DNA of 64,000 nt from contig ADNK01001596.1 of NCBI GenBank assembly GCA_000320545.1, positions 1 to 64,000 of the forward strand, read 5' to 3'. A model generated the notes under the pieces. That model did no database searches. It worked only from the letters and a program-made list of their open reading frames with translations, and was not told the DNA's origin. This document shows, in pieces, positions 9,000-32,507 of this stretch (position 1 is the stretch's first letter; every line of letters begins with the position of its first letter). This DNA is from Bigelowiella natans CCMP2755. Taxonomy: Eukaryota; Protista; Cercozoa. Both the position numbers and the translations under genes were made by a program.

Positions 9000-9424
9000 T
9001 GTGACGGCGGAAAATTCAAAGGAATTTGACCGTTGAAAGTGGTCAATTTTGGAAGTCAATCCCGTTGAAATGCCCTGCAGTTTTGGCAGTTTTGGGTGGA
9101 GTTGGTGCTGTTGGTTGGTTGATTGGCAAATTGAGTCATCAAATGGGAAGCAAGTGGTTTGGGAAAAACCAAGTTTGTGTGCACGCAGCTGCCTCGATTG
9201 GTCAATGGCAGCGAACCCGCACCTGGCAGTCAGTTCGCTAGAAGTTTGAAAGCGGTCAGTGTGTTTGTTTGAGCGTGCACATGCGTGTGTTCTGAAGTCA
9301 CCAATGTCATCAGGGTTCATTGTTCATTGGAAAGTTTGATTGTTTTTGCTGAATGAGCGGCGACGAGCGTGCTGGTTTGGCAGAGGCAGAAGCCGACACT
9401 GGGAGATTGCTTTCAGCTGTCGCA
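9000..9424 (+). repeat. 5' LTR of element A
   Basis: Near-identical to 15114-15538. Confidence 0.95.
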
Positions 9425-12400
9425 GATGGCAGCGGCGCAGTGGAACGAAAGGAAAAAGTGCCAGAGGTGATGCACATTGAATCAGGAGGACCTGTTGCTG
9501 CGGGTGCTGCAGGTGACTTGAAGGAATCCAATTGGCAGGAAGTTCTGCTTGGGATGAAAATTGACAAGTTCCGAATGATCCTGGAAGGGGTGTCCATCCA
9601 GGAGAAACTGGCGGTCAATTTCAACAAGGACATCCGCAGCTTGCGTGACAATCGCAGTTCCCGCAGGTTCTTCATGGATCGATGCAGTGACAAAGGAGTG
9701 CCGGAGAAGACGTGGAAATGCTTCACAGAAAATCCGGAAGCAGCGGAGGACTTGATGGATGACGAAGATGCAACGGCAGCAGAGGAAAAGAAACAAAACA
9801 AAATGCGAGAACAAGACATCGGGGATCACCGAGGAATGTCTTGCAGAGCGAAAGCCATGGAAACACTTGGAAAGAAAATCAAGGTGAGGGGAGAACTTGA
9901 CCCAGCCTTCATTCACCGTGAAAAGTTTCGGAAGAAGGTGAGAAGAATCCAGAGTCAAATCGCAGGGCACAGCGAACTCTTTGGAGCGGACATGAGATTC
10001 GGACACGAGTTCTTCCGAACGATGTTGTCCCAGGATGCACGGGACAGGTTTGATCTGTGTGTCAAAAAACAGGAGAAGGAACGGCAACACCGAATGGATC
10101 ATCGCGAGAAACTCGAACAAGGAACACAACACTTGTGTGGCGAAGAGTCCCCGCAAGACACAAGGTTTGGGTTCAACAAGGAGTTTGATGAACTGCGAAA
10201 GGAGAAATTCAGATTTGCAGACCAAGTGATGATGCACAGTGAGCATGAACAAGTGTGCAGTCTGTTCCCGACGCACAAAATTGACCAGTGCGACAGGATG
10301 AACCATTGCAAAACCACAGATGTGGTCGATCCCTGCTCCCAGCCATGGCACATCACGACACCATGGGCATGACTCCAGCCGAACTCTTCAAACAGCTGAG
10401 AATTGGAGAGGAAATGATTCAGGAGTCACAACCGAAACACAACAGTGTGAATGCAATTGGAATGGAAGGGAACAGGAAGAAGAAGATCTGTTTCAACTTC
10501 CATGAAAAAGGGACTTGTCGACATGATCGATGTGGAAACGAATGCAAACGTGGTCATGAGAAAGGAGGGAAGTCCAACAGACTGTGCAAGTGCATCAGAG
10601 AGGGAAAATGCAAATGGGGCAAGAGATGCAGATTTTCGCACGAGCCAGGGGATGAAGCGACAAATTCGTCGAAGATTGCAGTGGATGCAAGTTTCCCCAA
10701 AATCATTCCTAGTTCCGATCCCTCTGCCAACACCTCGAATGGTGATTGGAGGGAATCCTGTGAGGACGTGGTGCAAACTGTGGACAACGATGTGGCAGAA
10801 TTGGCACAAGTCAACATCCCACAGGTCAACATTGCCTCCAAGCCCTGCAATGCAAATGAGTCTTCACGCCATTGTGATGTGCTGAGGGTGTTTGTGGAAG
10901 GCAAAAGTGGACCTGCTGAGATGAAAGCACTCCTTGACGATGGATCGCAGCCCACCACCATCAGCCTGCAAAAGATCAAATTGCTCGGCAAGCTGGGGGC
11001 AAAAATGAAAAGGACAAAGATGAGTGGCCAGGTTGGAGGTTTGAGTGCCACCTGTGTCCGGATGGAGGGTGAGGTGGAGTTTGAGATGAGAGTGAAGTGC
11101 AAAACCGCTCGGGGGGGACACGTGAGGCTCAGGATTTTTGCCACAGTCCTGGATGGGAATGCAAACTTTGACTTCACAATTGGCCAAGATGTGAGAAATC
11201 TGCACCGCATCGTGTCGCACCCAGACCCCAAACCCGAGCATCGCAAAGTCACAATTGATGGCACACCTGTTTGCTCTCATCCCTGCACTTCTCACCATCA
11301 AAATGCGAACTCCCTCACACTGGAAAGCAACTTGCTGGCCTCACCTGCATCAGCCCAGGATGCGGGCATCACCGATGGTGAAAGAAGCAAAACTGAAAGG
11401 CTGTCAAACTCGTGTTCAGTCCATGAGACACTCGACCTGTTGGATGCAGCGGATTCCCGATCAAGAGAGTGCGACCACGTCTGCGGCACTGGGGTGCCGG
11501 ATGAGGAAATTGAACACAGTCTTGGTGAGATTGTGTCGCTCCAACACGTCCACAGGGAATCAGAACGTGGCAATGCTGAACTTGCTTCGGGAGACTGCTT
11601 GCGTGTGCTGAACAGGGCAGAGGAAGAGTTCCGCGCAGGTTCAACACTCATGACGTCAAGAGAGCAATTTCATTGCCTGCGTCGTGTCCTGTGTCGTTGC
11701 TCATCGCGATTTGTGGAAAACACACCTGAGACAGGAGAATTGCGCATGCCGAAACACGAAGTCCATGATCACCTTTCACCGGGAAAGAAATTCATGCACC
11801 AAAAGGCTCACCGATTGCCCCCGGACAGATTGAATGCGATGGAGACCAAGTTGGAAGAACTGGAAAAACATGGGTCGTGCCACAAAAAATGTCGAATGAA
11901 GAAAAAGTGACAGCCACTTCACCTGCATTTCCTGTCTGGGACAGAGGCAAGAGCACCTGTCGGGTGGTCATCAGTGTGAAAAAAGTGAACGATGCTGTTG
12001 AACCAATGCACTTTGTCATGCCGATAACTGAAAACACCATGCGAAAAGCAACAACGAAAAACTGGGTGACATCGACCGACGCAAAATCTGGCTGGCCACA
12101 GATGGGGTGCACAAAGAAAACGCAAATGACCTTCGTGTTTGCAACTCAGAAACGTGCCAGATCAAGTTTGGGCCTGCCATTTGGACACAAAAATGCTCCT
12201 CAGACACTTGCGTGGTTGATGATCCAGATCATCAAAGGTCTCAACGACACGGTGGTTCGTGTGGATGATTGCTGCAACACGGGGGACACGTTCATGGCAG
12301 CATTGTTGGAGTTCACCAGATTCATGCAGAGGGCTGAAACCAAGAACTTGCACCTGTCTGCTGAAAAATTGCAAGCGTTTCCGAAAGAGTCATCCATGGT

Positions 12401-14945
12401 GGGGGTCATCCGAAAAAATGGCAAACATTGCCCAGACCCGAAGAGGATGCATCCCCTGGATGCTCTCCAACCACCTGAAAAAGGAGCACGATTCCTCAAG
12501 TCAGTGCAACGCATCGTGGGGTCATTCACTTGTTGTTCACGATGTGTCAAAGACTTCTGGAATGTCATTCGACCTGTCAGCATCCTGAATTCAAAAAACG
12601 CTCCACAAGTCTGGGGAAAAGAACAACAGATGGCTTTGGATGCAGCGAGGGATGTGCTGAAGTCTTCGTCTTTGTTCACACCTGAATTTGAACACATCAC
12701 CCGTGAAAGTCCATTCCTTGTGGATGTGGATGCGTCCAAGTGTGCTGGGGGAGCTGCTCTGTCTCAAGCAGTTGATGGGGTGGAGCGCCTTGCGTGTTGC
12801 TTCAGCTTCACCTGGCGGAAACATCAGATGAAATGGCACGCAATGAGAAAAGAATTTGACAACGGTGCTCGGAGTCTGGACTGCTTCAGTGTCTTCATGA
12901 AGGGATTTCCAACGCGCGCAAGAATGGATGCAAAGGTTGCCATGCACATGGCAGCACATGGACAAGATCAATCACGCGAACCGCACACGAGAATCTCTGT
13001 GGCTCACAACTCGCACATGCTCGTGGGGGTTGAGTGTGGAGAGGGCCCGAGCCACAAGAATGCGGATTGCATCAGCAGGCCTGGACACAGTGTTGAAAAT
13101 GATGCGGATGAAGAAACACTGGTCAATCTCTTTCCTCTCCATCATGCTTCGGCAATGCTCAAACACTTTGGTGACAAATTGCAGAACAACACCTGCTTGA
13201 GCTGTGACCAACCGGCAGTTGGATGTCATCCCACGGATGCAGAGGTCAAACTCACTTGCTCACAACTGTGTTGTGATTTGGCGAAGAAGGTGGGATTTGA
13301 CGAGTCCAAGTTTCGCATCCCATCCAAAGGGACAAACACGAAAAGCAAATCAAACCAGAGCAAGCTTGCTCCCAAAATCAATGTTGCGCGCTTCGACGGG
13401 GACTCAATGTTGCACCCGTGCTCTGCGTTGGCGCATGAAGCAGACGAGCATGTGGAAAATTGCAACACAATGGAATGCAAAACAGAGTTCTCACCTTTGC
13501 AGTCGCACAGTGTGGAGGTGGAGCTCAAGTGCGACGTCTTGTCTGAGCGCCTACCTGTGGAACAACGAGAAGAATTCACCAAAACGTTCGCAGCTCTGGA
13601 AAACAAAGACAATCCAAATCATGCTCTTGCTGCGGCACAACATGAAATTGTGGATGACACCTTGCACAAGTGCGGCGACTGTGAAAACGACGATCATGGC
13701 ATCCCTTTGCTCATTGTGGTTCCCAAACAACAGCGGAACAAAATCATGGACGCCTGCCACGTGACGAATTTGGCCAATCACAGATGTGCAAACGATGTGG
13801 CAACAAAGATCCTGCAAGCATGTTGCTGGAAAGGCTTGACGTGTTCGTGCAAAAAACGTGTTGCAACCTGCCAGGCATGCATCAGAACAAAACCTCGTGT
13901 GAAGCAATCACCTCACAAGCAGCTGCAGATGAGAGGAGTCATGGAAGCTGTTTCGATTGATGCCATTGGACGCATGGAAGGAAAGCATCACCACATGCTG
14001 AATGCGTGCATCTCATCGATCGGTTGCATTTTTGCAAAATGCCACAAGAAGCTTGACGCTGAAGTTGTGGCCGAGTTTCTTTTCGACTTCATTGTCGTGT
14101 TTGGGGCACCTCGTGAAATCCTTGCTGACCAGGGACCTGAATTCATGAACAGCGTCATGCTTCACTTGAAGAACAGATTCGGTTTCATGAAACTCACTGC
14201 ATCGAGTGAATCCAAAACGGGCAACTCACTGATTGAAAGAAAGAACAGAGCACTTGACAACGGAACATTGGCACAGCTCACACAACTGTCTGAATCAAGA
14301 TGCAATTGGCACAAAGAATCACCTTGTGCTGTCTTCTCAGCCAACACTTTGTCACCTGATGCGCGAGGAAACTCGTGCGCTGAGCTCCTGTTCGGGTTTC
14401 AACCCAAGTTGGAAGGAGACTTGAACTGCAAACGTGCACCTGTGAGAGAGGAGAAAGTTGCAGACGACATTGACTCTCGCATTCAAGTCATGAAGAGGAT
14501 GAGATGTTTGTTCATGACGGACAGATCCGAATGGAGATTCCTGAAAAATTTCAAACGCAATGACAAGATGGGGCAACTGAAACGACACAAAGTTGGGGAT
14601 CTCGTGTGGTCACATCGTGACGAGGACCGCAAAGGGCATCGTGTTGCTCCGCATTTCGCGCTGAAAAAGACAGGCCCGGTCCTGATCACAGCTGGCATCA
14701 GAGATTCAAACAATTGCTGTGTCCATTGCAACACTCACAGAGTGAAAGATCCTGAAACAAGTCATCGGAACGTGGTTCATGCAAAGTGTTTGTCTCCCTT
14801 TGGCACCTTCACAGCATTGCCAGAAGTTGCAGTGCCACCACAGGATGAAGTGTCTTCATCTGAGAGTGATCCAGATCTGTCCAATCTCCATCAGGGGATG
14901 AGGGAGAAGAAGATGATGCTGACATCAGTGCACGCAACATTCTGA
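9353..14945 (+). pseudogene. gag-pol of element A in three frames (9353-10372, 10288-11910, 11877-14945)
   Basis: CCCH fingers, protease ALLDDGS, RT LPFGHKNAP and RVDD (ex YVDD), RNase H DAS, integrase zinc finger and IDA...ADQGPEF...E with D-35-E spacing. No Tyr seen in any of the three ORFs. Confidence 0.9.
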
Positions 14946-15113
14946 TGTCTGCTCGTGTGCGCAAGGCACCTGATCCTGGAGCCTTTGTGTCGCATTGAAC
15001 TTGTGATTGAAGTCGAAGTTTCCAAGTGTTCCGTCAAGTTTGTGCAAGTGCACAAAGATTGCAACGTGGAGTCAGTTTTGCGACGTCCGCAAATTGAAAA
15101 AAGGGGGGAATGA

Positions 15114-15538
15114 TGCAACGGCGGAAAATTCAAAGGAATTTGACCGTTGAAAGTGGTCAATTTTGGAAGTCAATCCCGTTGAAATGCCCTGCAGTTTTGG
15201 CAGTTTTGGGTGGAGTTGGTGCTGTTGGTTGGTTGATTGGCAAATTGAGTCATCAAATGGGAAGCAAGTGGTTTGGGAAAAACCAAGTTTGTGTGCACGC
15301 AGCTGCCTCGATTGGTCAATGGCAGCGAACCCGCACCTGGCAGTCAGTTCGCTAGAAGTTTGAAAGCGGTCAGTGTGTTTGTTTGAGCGTGCACATGCGT
15401 GTGTTCTGAAGTCACCAATGTCATCAGGGTTCATTGTTCATTGGAAAGTTTGATTGTTTTTGCTGAGTGAGCGGCGACGAGCGTGCTGGTTTGGCAGAGG
15501 CAGAAGCCGACACTGGGAGATTGCTTTCAGCTGTCGCA
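15114..15538 (+). repeat. 3' LTR of element A
   Basis: Preceded by a purine tract and followed by TSD ACAGG. Confidence 0.95.
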
Positions 15539-18362: not shown

Positions 18363-19248
18363 ATTTCTACGAGTTTCGGAGCCTGTGAGCACAGCCAGAC
18401 ACAATTATGTTGCAGGCCGGTGTGTGGGGCGGGCAAACGATGTCTCTCCACTATGACCCGCAACTTGTGTGAATTTGTGTGAGGTACGAGTCACGTCATT
18501 TTCCTTACAACTGCAACTTCGAACGACTGCGAAAAATTAACTTCAAAAAATGATGACAATTATGCACAAACGTCAGATGAAACAATGAAAAAAAATTGCA
18601 AACGGACTGCATTTGAAAGCAAGTGCAGAGGGAGTTCCCACTAGATCTACTCCCTCGGTTGCCCATTCGCTACCGCAGCCCTTAATCCTATGGGAAGTTA
18701 CACACTTCCGATTAATGTTGGCACGCGCCAACGCGCCCATGCATGTGCGACATCAATTTTTAATTGTCGCATGCAGGACATAGACTAGGATAGCATCAAT
18801 GATACACTATGAATCCTATGCCGGTACAATGTAGTCTAGTCCAATTAATCGTCCGATGGGATTTATTTGTCCGATGGGACGACAACCTCAATTTCACCTC
18901 AACGACTCCGAAGAGTTCGTTGTTCTGAGCTTGTTTTGTCAGTTACCATCACTTGATTTTCACCTCAAAATGCAGGTCAAATTGTGGTGAAAGACATCTT
19001 TTGTGTGCACAAATTCAATTTTTTACGGTTAAAAAATTTGAATTTTAACAACGCTCCCCCCTCACCACCTTTTTCATCATGCGAAAAAGCCACCGTGTGG
19101 GGCGATCACGGGGCAGCGTGAACAAAGAAAAGCACGCACACGACTTGTTAGTCCTTGAGGAGTCGTGTGGGAAGATGAGGGATGGTCTGGCGGGTCTGAG
19201 TCAAATGTTCAAAAATGAACGCAAGGCGTTGAAATGCGTCCGTGTGCG

Positions 19249-19574
19249 TGTTGCGCGTAAGGTGTTCACAGGCCGAGGCGCTACGTGCACAAGTAGGCAG
19301 GGGGGGGGAAAGGCACGTTTGCTTCCTTTTGAAGAGTTGTGTTTATTTTTATTAAAGATTATATTTTTATTAAATCGTGCACTGCGTAATCATTCGCGAA
19401 GCTTTCGCGAATGCCGCCGCACGTGGGGCAGCACACTTCCGGTGTGCTGCCATGAGTCCCGCCGGAACCCACGTGCCTATGCTGTATTAATATCTACGTT
19501 ATCTATATTCTATATCCGCGACAACCCCTTTGTTGTCGCACGTGACTTGTGCCCGCGTAGTGGTACGCGCTACA
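19249..19574 (-). repeat. 3' LTR of element C
   Basis: Identical by eye to 24639-24964, with near-inverted termini TGTTGCGCGTA...TACGCGCTACA. Confidence 0.96.
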
Positions 19575-19625
19575 CCTCCCCCAAGTCACGTTGCTCCTTC
19601 CTTCCTTCCTTATTCCCTTAGACCT

Positions 19626-22600
19626 TCATCGCTTTCGGAACTTCACCAACCACCAGGTAATAGATTCCTCTCTAACCTTATCTCCTTTGTCGCTTACCCA
19701 GAACTCACCTTCGTCCTTAGGTTCGTGTCCATACCAGCCCTCTGCATCAAGGTCCCCCAGGACCTTATACCAGTGCTCAAAGGGTAAGTCGGGAACAGCT
19801 AGGTAGAGTAGCTGATATTTTCCGTCCTTTATTTTCATAGCTACCCTCTCCATATTTCGTAATCCAGGGTAGCCTAGATAGACAATCTTCATGCGCCAAT
19901 CGTCGTTCACCCTGACCTTATTGTTTCCATATTCCACATCGAACTTAGGTCGGGGTCCTAAACAAGGCATTGCTCGCTCCCACACAGTAGGGTTTACTTT
20001 AACATCCTCTAGGAGCTTCTCACCGATATCATAATTCTTTAGGTGACTGATGTGGCGCAAGGTGACCCTGTTCCCATCATAGATGTAGTACTGCTTCCTC
20101 CCCTTCCTCTCGGTAACCTTTGCAACGCCACCCCAGAAGGGGTCTTGTTTATTTCTCGATCTCAGATTTACCTTGGCCCTAACATACTGTCCTTCCTTTA
20201 GAACTCGGCCATCGTACGGGACCTTCTCGTCTTCGCTCTCGGTATCGTCGTCGTTGTCGTCGCCTTCTTCCCTCTCCTTATCCTTGATACCTCCCCCAGA
20301 CGTGAAGGTGTCGTTTACTAACCCTTGTATCTTGTCTGGTGTGGTGCTATTTATCCTGCTTAGGTTGGCCAAGGTGCGGTGGAGTCGCTCTACCTTGGAG
20401 TTGGACTGGGCATAGTATACAGGTGAGGCATCAATATTAGGGTGTGGTAGCTGTAGAAGAGAGGTCTCATTATCCACATGTAACTTCTTTGGTATCTTGT
20501 TTATGCTAACTTCATCAGGGATAGCCTGGAGCTCAGACTCCCAGGTACGGTAGCAGTTAGTAAGCCTCTGCTTATATAAGCCTTTGTTCTTCTTAGCAAC
20601 GTTGACCTTGATAATCTTTTTAACCCAGCACTTTCCAGTGGCCACATCAACGAAGGTAAGGTAGTGATAGCCATCGTACTTATAAACATCAATTTGCACG
20701 ATATCTAAGAAGTTCCTTGCTTTGATTTTCTTAGATGCACGGCTCTTGCTGGACTCCTTGGTGGCGACGCCTGCCGCCTTCAAGCTGGAGCACCTGCAGC
20801 CACGCAGGTATGTCCTTATCTCTTTTAGCTTGTAGGGCCAGTAGTAATGGTAGAGTAGAGCAGTGATATGGTTTTCTCCTACGTGTGCAGGTCCATGGGC
20901 GGTAAAGAGAAGGGCTCCCCTGGTCCGCCGTGGCACGTAGGTACGCCTAACATTATTAGTGTATACATATATCCTATCACTAAGTACCTCATGCTTGTGT
21001 TTGTATTTATCCAGGTGTTCTTGAAGGTGCTGGAGCTCCTCTGGCTCAGGCAGGAAGTCGCCGTCCTCGAAGGTAATCGCGTTAACCATAGGGGTGACCT
21101 GGGTAGGGACTTTCTTTTCGAACAGCCTGCTGAAATAGTCAGCAAGCTGCTTGTCTCCTGGTGCGTAGACCACTGTCCTCTTGTCCCTAAACTCTTCCGT
21201 GTCCGCCCTCATAGCTGCATACTCATCGTTAGGCGCTTCGAGCTTGCGGTCGATGCCTAGGAGGGGCTTGTGGTCAGTCATTAAGGTGAAGCTGGGCACC
21301 GACAGCAGGTAGTATCTTAGTTTCCTCTGCGCCTCAGTCATGGCTTTATACTCTCCTTTTGTAGGGCTGTACTTGGCCTCAGCTGCTGTGCAGGCCCTGC
21401 CCCACACCCGTATGATCTGCTGGTCTTGGGTAAGTACAGCAGCCATACCTAGCTTAGACCAGTCTGTCCATAGGGTAGCTGGTCTAGTAGTGTCTAGCTT
21501 AGCATTCAATAGGGTGTTGCTGCATAACTTTATTAGGTTATCGAAGTGGGCATCAAGGCCAGCCTTGGCCCACACCTTAGCGAAGCTGAGGCCTACAGAG
21601 TTCTCCTTCCGGTAAGCAGTAGTAAAAGCAGCTGCAGTCCTAGCGTAGGTAGGGGAGAACCTACGTAGTATCCAAGCTGCAGTCTGCAAGAATGACTTTA
21701 ACTCCTTTGCATTCTTAGGTTTAGGGGCTTGCTGTAGTGCTGCTACTTTCTCGGGGTTTGGGGTGATGCGGCCTTGCTCCAGGTAATATCCACACCACTT
21801 GATTCTTGTAGCTAGGAATGTACACTTCTGCAGTCTAATAGTAAAACCGAAGTGTGCAAACCTAATAAATATATTTTCCAGGAGGAAGATCTGAGCGACG
21901 ACTGTGTTGGTACATATTATGTCATCATCCACATACACAAACACAAACACCCACAACACAGACGCCATCCCATCATGTGTGTATGCCCTGTAGTTCTGAC
22001 TACTGAACGCATCCCCTGATATGCTTAGGCCGTAAGGGAATACGACGAAGTGCCACTTCCTGTGCCTGCTGGAGAACGCGGTAATGGGGCGGGAGGTTTT
22101 GTGGATGGGTGTCTGCATGTATGATTCATTTTTATCTAGGGAAGAGTAGTATTTGTATCCTATGACGTGTTCAATAACGTCATCTATCCTTGGTGTAGGT
22201 GTCTGGATCCTCTTTATTACTCGGTTGTGGCGGATGAAGTTGTGCGCCAGGCGGAAGAAAGGGTAAGTAGGTTTCTTAGCTAGCACATGTCTCACGTTCC
22301 ATGGTGAGTTGCTTGGCTCTATCTTCCCTTCCTTTGCCCATTCATTGATCTGCCACTCTATCTTTTCCCAGTCCGCTTCCGGTCGCCTATGTTCTGGGTC
22401 ATTGATGATGCACTCTTCGTATCCCTTCTTTAGCTCGATCTTTACTGGGGTAAGCTTGCTGGAGGGCTTCGTCGTCGGCTTGGTGATGTCAGAGTACTTC
22501 TCGTTTAATATTTTATTAATGTACTTTTTGCCTTTGTCGATATCCCAATCATCAGCTGGGGGGGTCTTGTCCAGTAGCTCCGTTATCTGTCGGATGGTCT

Positions 22601-24599
22601 TGCCGGGGTTCTTCTTCCGTAGCTCGGTAGGTGTAGGTAGCTTGTTGTCCGCTAGGTCCATAAACTCTAACGCATTAACGCTTGACTCAGAGGTCCACTC
22701 GTCAAGCCGTATCATGTTCTGGCTGATGGTCCTGCCTGACTTCTTTGGCAACTTAGCAAAGTATATCTTGTGATTGTAGAATGATATGATCCCCCCTAAT
22801 TTTTCTAGGGCATCCTGTCCGAGGAGTAGTTCCATGGATAAAGTCATGGCTACTCGGGTCTTGATTTGGGTCTCCGCGTCGCTGCCAGGTATCTGTAGCT
22901 TTAGCATTAGCTCACCGACGGTCTTCATGGAAGAGCTTCCGTCTGCTTGAGCATATTTACGTTCTTTCTTAGTCACTTGATCCAATAGTCCTAACCTTCT
23001 TACTGTGCTTAGGCTTATGAAGGACTTCGGCATGCTGCCACTATCCCAAAGGGCAGGTAGTTTCTTGTAGTCTCCGTAGCTGTCTTTAACTTTAACCTTG
23101 GTCATAGCAACTTTGATAGTCCTGTTAGCGTCTTCGTCATTAATGTTGCATACTCCTAAGTTCTTTATGTCGTCTAGGGTCATGGGCTTGTCTTGGTCCT
23201 GCGTTGCTGGTACTGCTGTCTTCGTCGGCGCCTGCTTAAGGTGATCTAATATTCCGTTTATCTGCTGCTGTATAGCATTGATACTGTTCTGCTTTTTGTT
23301 CTTATATTTATTGTTCTTCCCGTTGTTGCTGCCTTGCCATTTGCTGTTGTTATATCCTTGTCCTCTGCCTTTCTTTCTCTTTAACTTCTCGTAGTGTTCG
23401 TTGAGCTGCCTGATCGTCATCCTGGGTCGTCCTTCTTTCCTGTCTCTGCAGTCTTTAGCGGTGTGTTTCCCTTTACGTGAGCAGTATCCGCAACGTCGGT
23501 TACCTTCCCTGTCCTTGTACCAGTCTCGCTGCGGCTTAATAGCGTTAATGTTTCCTATGCCAGGTACCTTAGGGCTGGTAAACTTGCGGTCCTGCTCCTG
23601 CTCGCGTAGGGATATAGCCTGCACTGCTGCCTCCATCGTGGTGTAGCCTTTCTCCGTAACGTAAGTGGATTCCTTTATCTTTAACTTGAACTCTTCAAAC
23701 CTTGCCTGATCATCACCTGTGTTGTAATTAAAATCATGTAGTTCGTCGATCATATCCTGGAAGCGCGTGGCAAAGTCTCTAACAGGTTCTCTCTCATGCT
23801 GCATCATTGCTCTGTATTTTCTAATAGCCTGGGGTAGGGAGTTAGCATCCTGTTCATTTACAAAAGCCTTCATTATCGCCTCAACGTCTCGTAGCCCACT
23901 AACTGTAGTGTGTATTTTCTCTAGCTGCCTGATCCGGGTCCTGCCTGTCTCGTAAAGGTCCATGGCTTGCTTTATTATAGCTAGCCATTTGAGCTTGTCG
24001 TTTTCGGTGGGGTTAGGGGTAAAGTCGCAGAGTATACTCCTAGCGTTCTTCCACCACCTCCTTGCCTCACCTCTTTTCCCGTTGTATTTCGTTATCATAA
24101 CCGGTGCTGTTTTAACAGACATGAACTGGGTGTTCCGCTGTACCGGCTGCTGCTGCTTGACGGTGCTCTGGGTCGTCCCCCGCGAGGCGCCCAGACCCCC
24201 GTCGTTCCTAAACAAAGCTGCCCACTCTGGAGGTAAGTCTGCTTCGTAATCCATGATGTCCTGCATGATAGCTGCCCAAACATCATGTGTCTGATACTTG
24301 TATTCTATCGATACTTTCAGTTTGGCGTAGTTGCTCGCCCTGGGTCGCAAGGCTCGTAATGCCATTACGACCTTCTTGCTTTCGGCGGCCACGTCCTCGT
24401 CGTCCGCCTCGTAGAAGTTCTCCAGTGCCTCTGCTGCTGCATCTGCTTTCTTAATCCCGGGTGCTGGTCCCGGCGGTGCCTGTGGAGGTGTTCCTCCTCC
24501 TTCCTTAGCGTCCGTATCGCCCTTCCTTTCCTGTTTCTGCTCGTGCCCTTGCACGGCCTGCGAGCCAAAGTCCTGCTGTTCTTCTAGCTGCTGTGACAT
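19626..24599 (-). CDS. Gag-Pol polyprotein of element C (1657 aa)
   Basis: Zinc knuckle CGYCSRKGKHTAKDC, protease ALWDSGS, RT FPYGL and YVDD, RNase H TDWS...TDHKPL, integrase core, SH3-like CTD and an extra C-terminal domain. Confidence 0.96.
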   Translation of the reverse strand: MSQQLEEQQDFGSQAVQGHEQKQERKGDTDAKEGGGTPPQAPPGPAPGIKKADAAAEALENFYEADDEDVAAESKKVVMALRALRPRASNYAKLKVSIEYKYQTHDVWAAIMQDIMDYEADLPPEWAALFRNDGGLGASRGTTQSTVKQQQPVQRNTQFMSVKTAPVMITKYNGKRGEARRWWKNARSILCDFTPNPTENDKLKWLAIIKQAMDLYETGRTRIRQLEKIHTTVSGLRDVEAIMKAFVNEQDANSLPQAIRKYRAMMQHEREPVRDFATRFQDMIDELHDFNYNTGDDQARFEEFKLKIKESTYVTEKGYTTMEAAVQAISLREQEQDRKFTSPKVPGIGNINAIKPQRDWYKDREGNRRCGYCSRKGKHTAKDCRDRKEGRPRMTIRQLNEHYEKLKRKKGRGQGYNNSKWQGSNNGKNNKYKNKKQNSINAIQQQINGILDHLKQAPTKTAVPATQDQDKPMTLDDIKNLGVCNINDEDANRTIKVAMTKVKVKDSYGDYKKLPALWDSGSMPKSFISLSTVRRLGLLDQVTKKERKYAQADGSSSMKTVGELMLKLQIPGSDAETQIKTRVAMTLSMELLLGQDALEKLGGIISFYNHKIYFAKLPKKSGRTISQNMIRLDEWTSESSVNALEFMDLADNKLPTPTELRKKNPGKTIRQITELLDKTPPADDWDIDKGKKYINKILNEKYSDITKPTTKPSSKLTPVKIELKKGYEECIINDPEHRRPEADWEKIEWQINEWAKEGKIEPSNSPWNVRHVLAKKPTYPFFRLAHNFIRHNRVIKRIQTPTPRIDDVIEHVIGYKYYSSLDKNESYMQTPIHKTSRPITAFSSRHRKWHFVVFPYGLSISGDAFSSQNYRAYTHDGMASVLWVFVFVYVDDDIICTNTVVAQIFLLENIFIRFAHFGFTIRLQKCTFLATRIKWCGYYLEQGRITPNPEKVAALQQAPKPKNAKELKSFLQTAAWILRRFSPTYARTAAAFTTAYRKENSVGLSFAKVWAKAGLDAHFDNLIKLCSNTLLNAKLDTTRPATLWTDWSKLGMAAVLTQDQQIIRVWGRACTAAEAKYSPTKGEYKAMTEAQRKLRYYLLSVPSFTLMTDHKPLLGIDRKLEAPNDEYAAMRADTEEFRDKRTVVYAPGDKQLADYFSRLFEKKVPTQVTPMVNAITFEDGDFLPEPEELQHLQEHLDKYKHKHEVLSDRIYVYTNNVRRTYVPRRTRGALLFTAHGPAHVGENHITALLYHYYWPYKLKEIRTYLRGCRCSSLKAAGVATKESSKSRASKKIKARNFLDIVQIDVYKYDGYHYLTFVDVATGKCWVKKIIKVNVAKKNKGLYKQRLTNCYRTWESELQAIPDEVSINKIPKKLHVDNETSLLQLPHPNIDASPVYYAQSNSKVERLHRTLANLSRINSTTPDKIQGLVNDTFTSGGGIKDKEREEGDDNDDDTESEDEKVPYDGRVLKEGQYVRAKVNLRSRNKQDPFWGGVAKVTERKGRKQYYIYDGNRVTLRHISHLKNYDIGEKLLEDVKVNPTVWERAMPCLGPRPKFDVEYGNNKVRVNDDWRMKIVYLGYPGLRNMERVAMKIKDGKYQLLYLAVPDLPFEHWYKVLGDLDAEGWYGHEPKDEGEFWVSDKGDKVREESITWWLVKFRKR

Positions 24600-24638
24600 T
24601 GTTAGTCAAATCGTTTCCCGTGTGTGGAAGCCAAAGGT

Positions 24639-24964
24639 TGTTGCGCGTAAGGTGTTCACAGGCCGAGGCGCTACGTGCACAAGTAGGCAGGGGGGGGGAA
24701 AGGCACGTTTGCTTCCTTTTGAAGAGTTGTGTTTATTTTTATTAAAGATTATATTTTTATTAAATCGTGCACTGCGTAATCATTCGCGAAGCTTTCGCGA
24801 ATGCCGCCGCACGTGGGGCAGCACACTTCCGGTGTGCTGCCATGAGTCCCGCCGGAACCCACGTGCCTATGCTGTATTAATATCTACGTTATCTATATTC
24901 TATATCCGCGACAACCCCTTTGTTGTCGCACGTGACTTGTGCCCGCGTAGTGGTACGCGCTACA
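24639..24964 (-). repeat. 5' LTR of element C
   Basis: Followed on the minus strand by PBS TGGCTTCCAC. Confidence 0.96.
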
Positions 24965-26019
24965 TGCGTCCATCGTCGGGGAGCCAGTTCCTGACCCCGT
25001 CGCCAATGTCTGAACCCTCTGCTTCCACCCCTGCATCGACTACTTCGTCTTCAAGTTGTTCCACGTGCGATTCCACGTCAAAAAGACTGACAGAGGTCAT
25101 TGGTCCGCTTGATGTCGATGGTGACCGCATCGGCAGCAAGCTCCGTCGTTCCACCAGAAAATCCAATTTCTCTGCATCATCGGTTAGTTCGTCGTCGTCT
25201 AGGGCTTCTTCCCGCACAAGTGTGAGTATGATCGAGGACGATGTTGTTGCTGTGGTGGGGTGCAATGCAGTGTTGTCCACAAGAAAGGCAGCTGTCCGAG
25301 GTCCCACCTCGAACAGATTCGGAACAAATGCTGGCAAAAGGGAAGTGTCCAGCAAGGAGTTGAATCTGCCCGATCCTCGAGATTTGACTGCACCGGCTAA
25401 AAAAAGGACAGCGGCAGAAGTGATCCGCAAATGCACGCCCCGCAGGAAGGCATCTGTGATGAATCAGACAGCTGCATGGGCTGGCATGAGCAAAAGAAAT
25501 GCTGGACGATGGTGGAACAATGTGTGGAATGCTTCTGAAGGGGATCTAGTTTCGGATGTGTTGCAGGCCAGAGGCCAGCCACCGAAATTGAAGAAAAGCA
25601 TGATGTCGAGAGTGTGCAAGGAGGTGGTGAACGACAACACGGGTGCAAGCAGCAATGTGAAGTTTGCTGTGACAGAAAACGACACATTGCGCCGAATGGA
25701 TGAGCTGGTGGAGGAAGAAGCGAGGAGGAAGAACAAACGTGCATCAAGGGCCAAGATGGGCAGATCCACGAAGTGCGTGATGCTCAGTGCGATGAGCCTC
25801 ATCACCAACACCAAGAGACGCGTGAAGTGCAAAACCCAGTCCAGAACAACCGCCGAGTCTTCTCTGAGGAATCTGGTGTCTTGCTGCTGTGAAAAAACGC
25901 AAGGTGTTGAAATGGGTGCAATGTCAACCCAAATGAAGATTGCAACGATGGACACAGTGACATCACACGTGATGTGCATGTGGTGTTGCACGTTGTCTGC
26001 AATGAGCATCCCCTTGTGA

Positions 26020-26369: not shown

Positions 26370-26883
26370 TGATGTGCGCCATGCTGTTGGAGCTGCGCCA
26401 TTTCTCTGCTGAGACGCTCAACCCTGCAGCAAGTGAGCAGCAGCAAGCTCAATCCTTTGGCTAGACAAGTTGCAATCCAAACATCCTTCCACATGGATGC
26501 AGCTCAGCTTCAAGGACATCGATCCTTGAAGCACAATTTGGTCATCAGACATTGGTTTAGATGCAGCTCCAGTCATCAGCGCAGACGCAATCCACCGGGA
26601 GCTAGTGCTCCGTGGATGTGGTCAGCACAGTGCAGTTGGCACGATGTGGTGACGACAATCCTCTGACGGGATGTCGTGGTCCTTGTCGCAAGGAACAATG
26701 TCGCGATCAGCGCCCTTGCGACAGCACATCATGTTGACACGTGCTGACAGCCGAAGCTTCTCGAAAGCTTCGGGAAACAATTCGGAACATCAATTTGCGC
26801 GCCAAATGCTGTCAATGCGCAAACATGTAACGGAAGTAAATCGTGATCAGAATTGAAATGGACAAGTGCCTTCGCGCATCACA
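26370..26883 (+). repeat. 5' LTR of element B
   Basis: Matches 31893-32406 with a few transition-only differences. Confidence 0.95.
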
Positions 26884-26932
26884 AATTGGCTTCCACTCTA
26901 GGAAATTTTTTTTTGCCCCCCCGGACCCTCCC

Positions 26933-29900
26933 ATGACCCCTCTTGACACCGCCGTTGACGCTGCAGTGGCCTTCACGAAGGATCCCACCGACAGCAAGGC
27001 GGTGCAGCACGCCCTCAGCGCCCTCACGCCGAATCCCATCTTTCACGAGTCACTTCGTCAGGGTGTGGAGAAGGCTACGGACGCTCGCATGTTTGGAGCT
27101 TTCAGGTTGATGTTGATTGAGGCCATCCCGGAGGGACAACCTCGCCAAGCTAACGTCAGTGCTACTAACTTGCAACTTTGGCGCACCTTCTTCGCTACGG
27201 ACAACGGTAACTCGTTGCCCGTAGACGATGCTGATGCTGTTAAGTCCCCCTCTGCTGACAGTGAACGGGGCCAGCAAATGCAACCTAAAGTCAGAATCAA
27301 ATCCACGAATGACATCAACAAAGTTAGTGTTACCCTCCCGAAGTTTAATGGCTCGAGAGGTAAATGTACTCGTTGGTGGAAGAAGGTTAGAAAGACTTTA
27401 GAAAGTACTTACCCCGGTTTCGACTCGAAGGAAAAGAACCAGTGGTTACCTGTGATCCGGGGTTGCCTTCAAGGATGCCAAGCGGGTTACGAGAGACTCG
27501 AGCAATGCGAGGATCGAGAACCTAAGTTGATTGGCACGGTAGATAAGTTAGATGTTTACCTGCTCATGGAGAAGTTCGTGAAATCTTACGATCGGAACTC
27601 CAAGGGCCACTTGCTTCAGGAGTGGCGGGCGCTATCCCAGAACGATCGCGAGCTTATCGATGACTTCAAGACTCGCTTCTTCGGATTAGTCGCCGACCTA
27701 AAAGAGCAAGGTCACGTGATCCCACCTAATCAACTTTGTGATTACTTTAGGGACATGTGCAAAGAGTCCGCTACTTTGCGTATCAAGAAGAAAGAAATCA
27801 CCGACATCGATGCAGCTGTGGACTACATCGCGGAAATTGAAGCGAATGCTGTCAAAGGCACGTCGAAAGGTCTACATGATATACCCCGATCTGATCGAGC
27901 CGGTGGAAATGAAGGTACGAAAGAGACGTTTACCGACAGAAAAGGTAAAGTTAGGTGTACCCATTGCTGCGGGTTGAAGCACGGGCAGTCCCAGTGTTAT
28001 CGCCGTAAGAAAGGGAAACCTAAAGTGACGTTGAAAGAGAGAATTAACTTAGAGGACCAAAGGGATAAACGTAGGAACGGTCATAACGGGAGAAAGGGAA
28101 ACTTGAGGGGAAACTTGAACAATGCATCTCAGGTTCTTCAGCAGCAGGTGGAGAAGCAGGGCAAAGCGATGAACACGTTGCTAACGATGCTCGGGGGAGG
28201 TAAGGAGGCTCCGCAGGAGCCGACCCTCCAGGACGTACGTTCTATGCTTCACGCTGTATCACCTTGCGAGGCCGCGGGGCCTCCTCCGGATGCCGCTGAT
28301 GTCCCGCCCGTTGATCATGTGCCCAGCGCTGAGGATTGCAAACCAGCTTCAGCCCCTACCCCGACCCCTTCTCTACAAAGCGCTAACTCTCTTCACGGCA
28401 GCCGCAAAGTGTCCATGACGAACATCGGCTTGCGTAACTCAAAGGGACAGTTTGATACCTTTGCTGCCCTCTGGGATTCTGGTGCCATGCCCGAGTCACA
28501 TGTCAACCTGCACACAGTCAAGGCATTAGGCCTGCAGAGGTTGGTCAAGGTGCATCGAGAGAATCACAAGAACGCTCAAGACCAGTCGACTTTCTCGACC
28601 ATCGGTTCCATCGAGCTTGAGGTCAACCTCAATGGTGAGGTTGTGCCTTGCACCTTCAAGGTTGCCCCTGTTCATGTGAACATCATTCTGGGACAGGGAT
28701 TTTTGGAATTAGTGGGAGGGGTCATCAATGTGGTGAACCATGCTGTTACCTGTCTCCGCATTATCGCGACGCGTCCAGCAACCCATGATCAAAGCATCGG
28801 AGTGGAAATCAGTCGGCAACATTGGAGCTGAGGATTGCATGAATGGTTTGCCGCCTCCTGAAGAATGCCGCAAGATGCATCCAGGGAAGAACCTGCGCCA
28901 GACAGCGGAGATCCTCGAGCGGACTCCGCCGAACGATGACCTAACGGTGGAGCAGGGGCGGGAACATGTGAAGCATTTGCTCGATGCGAAATGCAAAAGC
29001 ATTGCCGTGCCGAGATCTTCTCCTTCTCCGCACATGCGCCCTGTGCGCCTGCGACTCAAAGAGGGGTACGAGGATGTCATTGTCAATGTGCCTCCTCGCC
29101 CGAGGCCGGACCGCGACTGGGACCGGATCGAGAACCAGGTTGCGGAGTGGGAGCGCCAAGGGAAAGTGGTCCCCACCACTTCTGCCTGGAATGCCCCGCA
29201 CGTCGTCGCCGCTAAGTCTGCACCCCCTCATTTTGGACTAGCGCAAGATCACAGGAGAGTCAACAAAGTGTTGGCACCTGCAAAGTTCCCGCTTCACCGG
29301 ATCGATCTCATCGTCGACGATCAGGCGCGGAAAAAGATTGAATCTGTTCTGGATCAGATGGAGGCACACATGCAGACGCCGGTCCACAAGAGGGACCAGT
29401 TCATGCTCGCCTTCAGTGCTAGGAAGGGCAAGCACATGTTCACTGTGCTGCCCCACGGGATGAAGGTGTCGGGGGACCTGCACACGCAGCGGAAGTTCGA
29501 GATCCAGTCCTCCGATGGCGGTTCCGTCCTCCTGTGGCATTTCACATTTTCACATGTTGATGATGACGCAGCAGGTGCAGACACGGTTGCAGCACACACT
29601 TTCATCATGCAGTGCATGTTGGACAGGTTCCTGAAATTCGGGACAGTGATCCGTCCGGAGAAGTGCGAGTGGCTGAAAAAGGAAGTTGTGCATTTGGGTC
29701 ATTCAGTTGGCGACGGTGTTGTGCGCCCTGACCCTGAGAGCCTTGCCGCGTTTGACAGTCTTCCTGAACGCCCCCTGAACCACAAGGAGTTGCGTCGGTT
29801 CCTCGGCATGGCCCAGTGGCACCTCAAGCGCTTCGCCCCCGAATGTGCAGAGTGTGCGGCCGTCCTGTCCTCCACCTGCAACAGAAAGCCTGACTCGGAA

Positions 29901-31874
29901 AGTCCTCTCGCGGAAACGTGGAACGCAGCCTGCCAGTCGGCGCATGATGGGATCATCGCCATGTGCAAGTCTGACCTTCAGAACAAAGCATTCGACAAAT
30001 CCTGCCAGTCCTCGCAGGTCTGGTTTGACTGGAGCAAGTCAGGTGTCAGTGCGGTGCTGGTGCAAGATGGTGAGGTGGTCAGGGCACATGGGCGAGCCTG
30101 CAATCCTGCAGAATCTCGCTGCTCCCCCACCAAAGGCGAACTCCTCGCTTTCACCGAAGCCCAGCTCCACTTCCGTCCCCAGCTCCTCAGTCTGGATGGC
30201 TTCCTGATGGTGACGGATCACCGACCGCTCCTAGGTGTCATTGAGAAATTGGATTTGGACAATGAAAACCTTGCCTCCCTCAGGGTTGAAACTGAGGAGT
30301 TCAGGGACAGGCGGACGCTGGTGCATGTCAAGGGCGACTCCAATCTGTCGGACATCTGGTCAAGGATGTGGCCAAGTGAGACGACAGAAGAGGGCTCCCT
30401 GACCAATGTGGTTTGCAGCATCACCCTTGAGGGGGGCGATTTCAAGCTGCGGAGCGAGGACCGTCGGGATCTCAGCGAGCGGAGAGAGAAATGTGGGTTG
30501 GTGCACCAAGTCTCTGATGCGCACGCTGAGGTCACAACTGAAGACACGCAGAGGACACACGTGCCTGCTCGCAGTCGCCGTTCTCTGCTCTGCAGTCTCC
30601 ATCTCCCTGATCATCAGGGGGAGCACACTCTCATCCGCAGGCTCCAGCCTCACTGCATTCCTAACAAGCAGGAATGCGTGCGGGAGTTTCTGAAGCACTG
30701 CACCTGTTGCACCTCTGAGCCGCAGACACTTCTCCGCCGCGAGTCCCCCAAGTCCAAGCAACAGTCTGTTGTCCAAGCGGACAAGCACTTGGACGTGGTG
30801 CAACTAGACGTGTGCTCTTGTGGGGACCAGAACCACCTCACGTTTGCGGATGTCAAAACGAAGAGGGCATGGGTCAGGAAGCTGCTCAAGAAGGGCGCCG
30901 CGAAAAAGAACAAGGGCGCCCACAAACGCAAAACACTGGAACAGTGTGTGATCTGGGAGTCCAGCTTGGGCCAGACACCCAAGCAGTTGCGGATGGACAA
31001 TGAGGATGCGTTGATCGCTGTTCCTCACAAGAACATCCGCGCTCACCCGGCTTGCCGTCCCCAGAACAATGGCATCATGGAGAGGGCTCATCAGGAGATT
31101 GCACGTCTGTGCAGGTCGATGAATTCGACCCCTGATGAAGCATGCAAGTGCCTCCGTGTCAACTTGGAACCCCTCAAGCCTGCATTTGAAGCTGGGGGAG
31201 GCGAGGAGCACAAGATGAAATGTGGGCTAGCTTCAAAGCAAGCTCAGCCGTCAGCCAACATTGCCACGGCGTCGGCACATGACGGTAGGACTCTCGAACC
31301 GGGAAGCTTGGTGCTCGTCAAAGTGCACTCCCGCTCCCGGAAGAAAAGCGATCCTGCATGGGCAGGACCGTTTGAGGTGCAGAGTCGTGCCTCCACCAAG
31401 TCACACTTCCTGAAGCGCAATGACAGGCTGTCTCACCGTCATTTCGACGATGTGAAACCGTTCTCCTTGGCCGACGAGACTTTCAAAGACTCCAAGGTGA
31501 ACCCTGTTGCATTCGAAAAAGGGAAAAGCTGCTCAGGTGAGATGCCAAAGAGCTTCGACGTGAAGTGTGAGAACCTGAATGCGGACTGCTCCGGGGACTG
31601 GAAAGGCAAGACCGTGTGGTTGGGACATCCGGGAGGGGAAGAGCTTGAACGAGTTGTGTCCAAGTTGAAGCTACGAGGCTTCAAGTCAGCCGTGCTCGTC
31701 GTCCCCGAAGTTCCCTTCCGTGATTGGTGTGCCACGTTGGAGGGCATTCGGAACGCCCGTTGGCACGGAGTAGAGCCTGGAGATGAACACCAGTTTTGGG
31801 TGGACTCTTCGAGCCGCCCCCACTGCAAGCCCCCTGTTGCTTGGTGGGTTGTGAGGATGGCTGGCAAAGGGTGA
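26933..31874 (+). pseudogene. gag-pol of element B (frameshift near 28750; RT motif HVDD)
   Basis: ORFs 26843-28831 and 28740-31874 with ALWDSGA, LPHGM, HVDD, FDWSK, TDHRPL and integrase. Only one Tyr seen in the 1044-aa pol ORF. Confidence 0.92.
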
Positions 31875-31892
31875 ATTCGCGTCTGGGGGAGG

Positions 31893-32406
31893 TGATGTGC
31901 GCCACGCTGTTGGAGCTGCGCCATTTCTCTGCTGAGACGCTCAACCCTGCAGCAAGTGAGCAGCAGCAAGCTCAATCCTTTGGCTAGACAAGTTGCAATC
32001 CAAACATCCTTCCACATGGATGCAGCTCAGCTTCAAGGACATCGATCCTTGAAGCACAGTTTGGTCATCAGACATTGGTTTGGATGTGGCTCCAGTCATC
32101 AGCGCAGACGCAATCCACCGGGAGCTAGTGCTCCGTGGATGTGGTCAGCACAGTGCAGTTGGCACGATGTGGTGACGACAATCCTCTGACGGGATGTCGT
32201 GGTCCTTGTCGCAAGGAACAATGTCGCGATCAGCGCCCTTGCGACAGCACATCATGTTGACACGTGCTGACAGCCGAAGCTTCTCGAAAGCTTCGGGAAA
32301 CAATTCGGAACATCAATTTGCGCGCCAAATGCTGTCAATGCGCAAACATGCAACGGAAGCAAATCGTGATTGGAATTGAAATGGACAAGTGCCTTCGCGC
32401 ATTGCA
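31893..32406 (+). repeat. 3' LTR of element B
   Basis: Follows the PPT and is followed by TSD CATT. Confidence 0.95.
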
Positions 32407-32507
32407 CATTGCAGCAGCAGCAGCAGCAGCAGTGGTCATTGTGGTGCTGCGTGTGGTGCTGACGTGCATGCATTGCAGCAGCAGCAGCAGCAGCAGTGGT
32501 GGTCATT
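32407..32507. repeat. Minisatellite, right part (split by element B)
   Basis: The same unit resumes exactly after the TSD. Confidence 0.88.

Follow-up and report, generated by a model that had tools for sequence, protein, structure and literature searches.

The DNA analysed here, hereafter the window, is a stretch of 64,000 nt from Bigelowiella natans CCMP2755, within which a repeat cluster contains three LTR elements, referred to as A, B and C. The features of elements C and B on which this study relies are the following.

19249-24964, minus strand: element C, a Ty3/Gypsy LTR retrotransposon (LTRs and ORF)
24639-24964, minus strand: 5' LTR of C, TG...CA, followed by a PBS-like tract partly common with B
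19626-24605, minus strand: single gag-PR-RT-RH-IN-Dam-like ORF of C, 1659 codons, stop-free
20379-20950, minus strand: integrase of C, HHCC zinc finger and intact D,D,E core
20031-20216, minus strand: integrase C-terminal domain (CTD) of C, basic, net charge +10, ending 1-3 residues before the Dam-like domain
19626-20030, minus strand: C-terminal domain of C with a predicted Dam/DIRS-MT/PCIF1 fold, residues 1526-1659, about 134 aa, stop included in the coordinates
19887-19946, minus strand: contracted SAM-binding region, with the Asp of motif I but neither the FAS nor the DAF-type motif
19860-19880, minus strand: altered motif IV loop after predicted strand 4, GYPG replacing [NF]PP[FYW]
19770-19796, minus strand: loop after predicted strand 5, with a Pro and a Trp invariant in 37/37 aligned rows
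19249-19574, minus strand: 3' LTR of C, identical to the 5' LTR, with a polypurine tract before it
26370-32411 (end approximate), plus strand: element B, same lineage as C
about 26370-26888 and 31893-32411, plus strand: LTRs of B
26840-28831, plus strand: gag-PR ORF of B, separate from pol
28737-31874, plus strand: pol ORF of B
about 31470-31874, plus strand: Dam-like domain of B, TpA-hypermutated, without Tyr, TpA observed/expected (o/e) 0.11

Element C is a Ty3/Gypsy retrotransposon, with LTRs, target-site duplication, PBS-like and purine tracts and the expected domain order all present. Its two LTRs, of 326 bp each, are identical and are flanked by a 4-bp target-site duplication (TGCG). Pfam profiles were matched in the order gag, protease, RT, RNase H and integrase, and the catalytic residues are intact (DSG, YVDD, RNase H Asp, HHCC and D,D,E). 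The presence of a protease and a DDE integrase sets the element apart from DIRS-like retroelements. The integrase CTD matched the profile of a foamy virus integrase at E 0.08. All eight matches returned by an initial homologue search with C were 99-100% identical B. natans gene models, one of them heading a cluster of 22 sequences, and this near-identity places C in a young multi-copy family of this chlorarachniophyte. The PBS-like tracts of C (24619-24635) and B (26886-26899) have their first 10 bases in common; no tRNA gene was found in the 64-kb window, nor a primer tRNA match for either tract.

A mutator converting TpA to TpG/CpA has been described in this host in a preprint by Mettrop et al. 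(bioRxiv 10.64898/2026.01.13.699255), and its footprint is plain in the window. The insertion of C splits a TpA-depleted, ORF-like stretch without Pfam match (19049-19248 and 24965-26019), just downstream of which lies a 64-67-nt tandem repeat that received element B. The flanks of C have TpA o/e values of 0.17 and 0.10. Element C itself reaches about 1.1-1.2, favouring CTA, ATA and TTA codons despite the host mutator, and its 346 TpA exceed the 317 ± 7 of synonymous shuffles (0/1000 as high). Element A (9004-15538), of Gypsy type, is almost devoid of TpA (o/e 0.00-0.02); it lacks the Dam-like tail, and its ORF at 10285-11910 encodes a CCCH zinc finger. In element B, the gag region (26970-28470) has a TpA o/e of 0.74 vs 0.09 in pol, and both LTRs are nearly TpA-free, a sharp mosaic suggesting that the mutator is locally limited or that the copy is recombinant. 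The mismatches between the LTRs of B (26370-26888 vs 31893-32411) mostly oppose TA to CA/TG, or CA to TG, indicating that mutation struck each LTR separately once B had inserted.

Element C is also covered by antisense RNA. On the plus strand between 19622 and 23924, antisense to the ORF, at least 17 GT..AG introns of 56-165 nt are missing from RNA contigs of two marine metatranscriptome studies, with five splice joints common to both studies, while two DNA runs contain the element unspliced. TpA occurs in the donor or acceptor of 15 of the 17 introns, donor-like sites are more numerous on this strand than in synonymous shuffles (33 vs 24.5, p 0.014), and no long continuous ORF was found in the joined part of the spliced RNA. 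These contigs may come from read-through RNA spliced at cryptic sites, or from an antisense transcript connected with silencing.

The initial annotation of this DNA, made from the letters alone, had pointed to a domain of about 120 aa following the integrase CTD in both C and B. The peptides that it quoted were found, in C at 19887-19904 (DDW...), 19860-19880 (the GYPG motif) and 19770-19796 (VPDLPFEHW) and in B at 31593-31727, and the two tails align with 33% identity over 152 residues (E 2e-34). The domain thus stands, but its length has to be raised to about 134 aa, with a first helix beginning near 19997. A phmmer search with the C domain against 1.84 billion representative sequences gave 47 matches at E ≤ 1e-3, split into 8 near-copies of C (84-100% identity) and 39 divergent relatives (29-67%). 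Among 30 clusters inspected by record, 2 name B. natans and one is labelled as a bacterial MAG, probably through contamination; the others are metagenome, transcriptome or Logan entries. A search for longer homologous proteins scored none of 4700 candidates.

The association with the integrase holds across the informative members of this family. In all 19 divergent relatives with at least 30 aa upstream of the domain, the integrase CTD ends 1-3 residues before it; the CTD is basic in 13/13 (net charge +5 to +14), and the Dam-like domain is C-terminal in 35/39 divergent relatives. The domain is itself neutral to acidic (median net charge -4, positive in 7/29), and charge was discarded as a discriminator as a set of phage Dam proteins has the same median of -4. 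In an RT-RNase H tree of 42 rows, of which 34 were every third match passing the length filter, seven carriers and one relative truncated before the integrase formed a single clade (100/100) sitting on a long stem. Integrase and domain distances were correlated across 11 elements (Mantel r 0.62), which shows shared descent only. Conservation within the polyprotein is lowest in the domain, with a mean identity of 31% vs 40-53% for integrase, RT and RNase H.

To assign a fold, we relied on an alignment of 37 rows comprising C, B, 34 of the 39 divergent relatives and one cluster member. Supplied with this alignment, AlphaFold2 predicted five strands and four helices for the C domain (pLDDT 96, pTM 0.89), arranged as a five-stranded sheet with helices on its flanks; from the single sequence, the pLDDT was 39. 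Among viral models (BFVD), Foldseek returned 11 matches at E ≤ 1e-3 (TM 0.59-0.68), six of them named methyltransferases and five of these DNA N-6-adenine methyltransferases, with PCIF1-like proteins next. The top matches were phage enzymes of the Pfam PF05869 Dam type (E 1e-5, TM about 0.63), which are stand-alone genes with an NPPY/F motif, unlike the integrase-fused domain of C. Against the PDB, Foldseek gave no match at E ≤ 1e-3, its top rows being nearly all SAM-dependent methyltransferases. Realignment of the top 1000 PDB matches ranked PCIF1/CAPAM best (Z 7.9, rmsd 3.7, 123 aligned residues) and the six best solved chains were all PCIF1/CAPAM (Z 6.9-7.9), with lower values for KsgA and Erm (about 6.2) and for E. 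coli Dam (5.3); Z values below 8 are modest evidence alone and may reflect a common fold. PCIF1/CAPAM, an enzyme active on RNA, measures about 490 residues in its crystals and shares 6-10% identity with the C domain.

Sequence profiles were far less sensitive. The Pfam Dam profile matched neither C nor B and only one of the 37 members (E 0.032), and searches of Pfam, PHROGs, NCBIfam and PDB sequences from C or B alone returned nothing relevant. ESM Atlas neighbours of that one member (P0034) were Dam in 28/30 cases, although P0034 had been chosen for its weak Pfam Dam match and is not a blind test. A BREX BrxC-like identity proposed by ESM Atlas for C itself (0.92, 157 shared features, guide 170) was rejected, structure and profile both pointing elsewhere. 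Taken with the DIRS profile match described below, the models make a Dam/DIRS-MT/PCIF1 methyltransferase fold well supported for the C domain. The homology to N6-adenine methyltransferases advanced in the initial annotation is hence supported, with both the structural and the profile likeness to Rossmann-fold enzymes having been found.

The same annotation had likened the domain to the methyltransferase (MT) domain of DIRS-type retroelements, on the basis of a motif pattern. Scanning genome contigs with this motif yielded 49 loci, 14 of which contain DIRS-like MT segments, mostly inside long RT-RH-MT ORFs; Pfam identified RT in 9 and Dam or PCIF1 in 8 of 10 such ORFs (E ≤ 0.1). The label "DIRS-like" refers here to RT-RH-MT content. 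Twelve of these ORFs were observed in bacterial MAG contigs (L142, L147, L152, L153, L155, L160, L165, L166, L171, L173, L183 and L184) and are probably eukaryotic contamination. The only metagenome pattern match (L003) was dismissed as a chance match, and three pattern scans of viral contigs produced no real DIRS-type domain.

The profile of the C family aligned with a DIRS MT profile of 13 segments in register over residues 10-96 (score 29.6, P 2.3e-4), against at most 17.9 for 99 shuffles and 12.6 for the reversed profile. The choice of scan motif could have biased this comparison, for which column masking and the scoring of all 49 segments served as controls. With the selected motif columns masked, the score dropped to 15.7, within the shuffle range, and the register held; the family HMM scored all 14 DIRS-like segments above all 35 chance ones. 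Family members reached 19 bits with the DIRS profile vs 7.6 with a profile of 103 phage Dam segments, and phage Dam was rejected as a profile match for the family (score 20.5, weak and out of register). By sequence profile, DIRS1-type MT domains thereby come closest, with a register that holds from the first helix through the one behind strand 5, and the DIRS pattern cited in the initial annotation agrees with actual RT-RH-MT ORFs. In a 42-row domain tree, the family falls among the DIRS rows on a stem 3.3 long, with support (94/87) below the bar for a firm placement. A DIRS donor is favoured by these comparisons. The two kinds of domain differ in context, the DIRS MT following RNase H in recombinase elements whereas that of C follows a DDE integrase, and in motifs, the DIRS domains keeping DLFA, DAF and xPPF and the C family having none of the three.

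The active site is altered across the whole family. The [NDS]PP[FYW] signature occurs in none of the 37 aligned rows. The motif IV loop instead shows G in 26/33, Y or F in 25/33, P in 31/33 and G in 30/34 rows, with a register uncertain by one residue (GYPG or YPGL against F/N-P-P-F). Element B reads GHPG, and its His codon (CAT) would have arisen from Tyr by a TpA-to-CpA change. In the DIRS set, which was selected for PP, motif IV reads FPPF (8), YPPT (2), NPPF, NPPW and LPPF (1 each), indicating that the Asn was often already lost in DIRS elements. The SAM-binding region has contracted. Motif I Asp, kept in 24/31 family rows, lies 14 residues from the Trp preceding motif IV in 24/31 rows (range 11-16), vs 32 in 9/9 measurable DIRS segments and a median of 25 in 70 phage proteins, so that the region is about 18 residues shorter than in DIRS. 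No strands were predicted between residues 35 and 48 of the domain. The DAF-type motif, which has a role in SAM binding, is present in 13/13 DIRS segments and falls inside the stretch deleted in the C family.

Both alterations had been noticed in the initial annotation, the replaced NPP-type motif and the eroded SAM site, and both extend to the family. Its wording of a degenerate methyltransferase fits the loss of motifs but not a decay: absence of NPP in 37/37 rows together with the deletion of about 18 SAM-region residues marks a family-wide change rather than the ruin of a single copy. Two alignment positions are invariant (Pro80 and Trp87, both in the loop after strand 5), and identities between C and B at the three codon positions are alike in the domain (0.50/0.56/0.33) and in RT (0.50/0.63/0.33). 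Codon-position identity was used in place of dN/dS, as intact copies of C are near-identical and C vs B is saturated and distorted by the mutator. Because of this invariance and this likeness to RT, the altered active-site state is, as read from the alignment, old, stable and under purifying selection. The motif evidence argues strongly that the Dam-like domain is catalytically dead.

Earlier publications have covered Dam-bearing Gypsy elements as well as DIRS MT domains judged likely inactive (bioRxiv 10.64898/2026.05.21.726589; PMC4738411). The preprint of Fernandez-Moreno et al. (bioRxiv 10.64898/2026.05.21.726589, May 2026) describes DAM-LTR, Ty3/Gypsy elements with a Dam-like domain in pol, in five lineages, detected with the Pfam Dam profile at E<1e-5. 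It reports AMT1 in 9/13 hosts and no activity in E. coli, ties the elements to 6mA hosts and proposes that they deposit the mark. DAM-LTR and C are alike in having a Dam-fold domain in pol, a five-stranded predicted fold and a probable DIRS capture. They differ in that DAM-LTR conserves Asn-Pro-Pro, which is found in 0/37 C-family rows next to a shortened SAM region; in that DAM-LTR lies above the Pfam threshold, which the C family approaches at best with E 0.032 in 1/37; and in their hosts, mostly AMT1-bearing for DAM-LTR and scored 0 for AMT1 in the case of C (PMC12695648). The main text of the preprint has no mention of Bigelowiella, chlorarachniophytes, Rhizaria or Cercozoa, its five named lineages being non-rhizarian, and we found no description of the C element family in the open-licence literature. 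The C lineage is DAM-LTR-like by architecture while falling outside the motif and the detection threshold that define DAM-LTR, and its domain is a new, divergent variant of the Dam-bearing Gypsy type, a likely pseudo-methyltransferase borne by the integrase of a Gypsy lineage that branches deeply.

As to function, we consider it an even chance that the domain is a catalytically dead binding module on the integrase, a role suggested by its position behind the basic CTD and by conserved loops at the edge of the former active site. An ancestor of the long-branched Gypsy lineage would have acquired the domain in a single capture, the probable source being a DIRS-like element; once the polyprotein is cleaved, the domain would remain on the integrase and travel with the cDNA. 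The former substrate cleft, where topology would place the conserved Gly, Pro, Trp and Cys, may then bind chromatin, a host protein or target DNA, and tether or assemble the integration complex. The domain would occupy the place that chromodomains hold in chromoviruses, whose accessory domain likewise sits at the integrase C-terminus with an unrelated fold and has a targeting role (discussed in bioRxiv 10.64898/2026.05.21.726589); no Pfam chromodomain was found in C or B at E ≤ 1. Its rank as the least conserved part of the polyprotein speaks against a binding module. Elements C and B are both inserted in TpA-depleted repeat DNA, but two insertions cannot establish targeting, and some gene models fuse C-family pieces to host-like domains, so that the evidence on insertion preference is mixed.

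A purely structural part, stabilising the CTD or the integrase multimer without any outside ligand, would accommodate this fast evolution, as well as the fixed gap of 1-3 residues to the CTD and invariant residues that are mostly Trp, Pro and Gly; we regard it as unlikely, since other Gypsy integrases function without such a domain and the conserved loops, which follow strands 4 and 5 and include the 6-7 loop, would by topology lie on the former active-site face. The near-linkerless fusion to the integrase CTD, and not to RT or RNase H, also makes it rather unlikely that the domain acts in the particle by binding element RNA, its cap or an RNA-DNA hybrid, aiding packaging or reverse transcription. 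Such a role is recommended by the best solved match being PCIF1/CAPAM, a cap-adenosine methyltransferase, and by the many conserved Trp, although the other domains of PCIF1 are missing from the 134-aa unit. Iyer et al. (PMC4738411, 2016) judged DIRS MT domains to be PCIF1-derived and likely inactive binding modules, and suggested that they may bind template transcripts. Residual catalysis, through a rewired site or a host partner completing it, seems very improbable: the predicted fold is intact, with motif I Asp kept in 24/31 and motif IV Pro in 31/33 rows, but motif IV supplies neither Asn nor Asp nor Ser as acceptor, the SAM pocket is short of about 18 residues, and even NPP-bearing retroelement DAMs were inactive in E. 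coli according to the DAM-LTR preprint (bioRxiv 10.64898/2026.05.21.726589).

Two proposals of the initial annotation concern adenine more directly. That the domain steers insertion by recognising 6mA, or some other modified adenine, in host chromatin would suit its descent from an adenine-flipping fold, an aromatic residue (Tyr or Phe) of the motif IV loop in 25/33 rows and the presence of METTL4 in the host (B. natans score 1, PMC12695648). The same supplementary table, based on predicted proteomes, scores B. natans and Lotharella oceanica 0 for AMT1, AMT6/7 and AMT2/5, and AMT1 is marked in Reticulomyxa only among its four rhizarian rows (PMC12695648); abundant ApT 6mA is accordingly not expected in the host. 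With these scores, we hold the reader proposal to be very unlikely. The other proposal, a counter-defence in which the domain acts as a decoy for the enzyme of the TpA adenine mutator or as a temporary shield of cDNA and young copies, is prompted by the existence of this host mutator and by the unmutated, TpA-rich state of C between TpA-depleted flanks. Yet carriers are mutated: B has the domain together with a pol TpA o/e of 0.09-0.11, and 16 of the 18 amino-acid differences between a C-family copy (P0018) and C are of the TpA type, while the youth of C, attested by its identical LTRs, explains its own state. The proposal fails where the domain is encoded in cis, and we leave decoy and transient or trans shielding jointly a slim chance. 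Three short proteins among the metagenomic relatives (P0050, P0052 and P0057) are devoid of Tyr, as are B. natans copies hit by the TpA mutator, a hint that this mutator also operates in their hosts. It is, finally, a quite doubtful idea that the domain senses the product or the chromatin of the mutator, for example deoxyinosine at TpA, in which case it could direct the integrase towards repeat clusters that are hypermutated already, or give new cDNA a short-lived protection; if true, it would be the first case of an element responding to the chlorarachniophyte TpA defence.

Returning to the integrase-borne binding module, the retention of a fold that has neither its catalytic motif nor a full SAM pocket, within a host whose AMT1 score is 0, argues for a non-enzymatic use, which is a long-open question for DIRS MT domains as well. 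As the C family lies below the Pfam threshold of the DAM-LTR preprint (bioRxiv 10.64898/2026.05.21.726589), such captures are probably undercounted. With a young and intact family in a cultured alga that has a TpA mutator, and with a small and well-predicted domain, the function of this putative pseudo-methyltransferase is directly testable.
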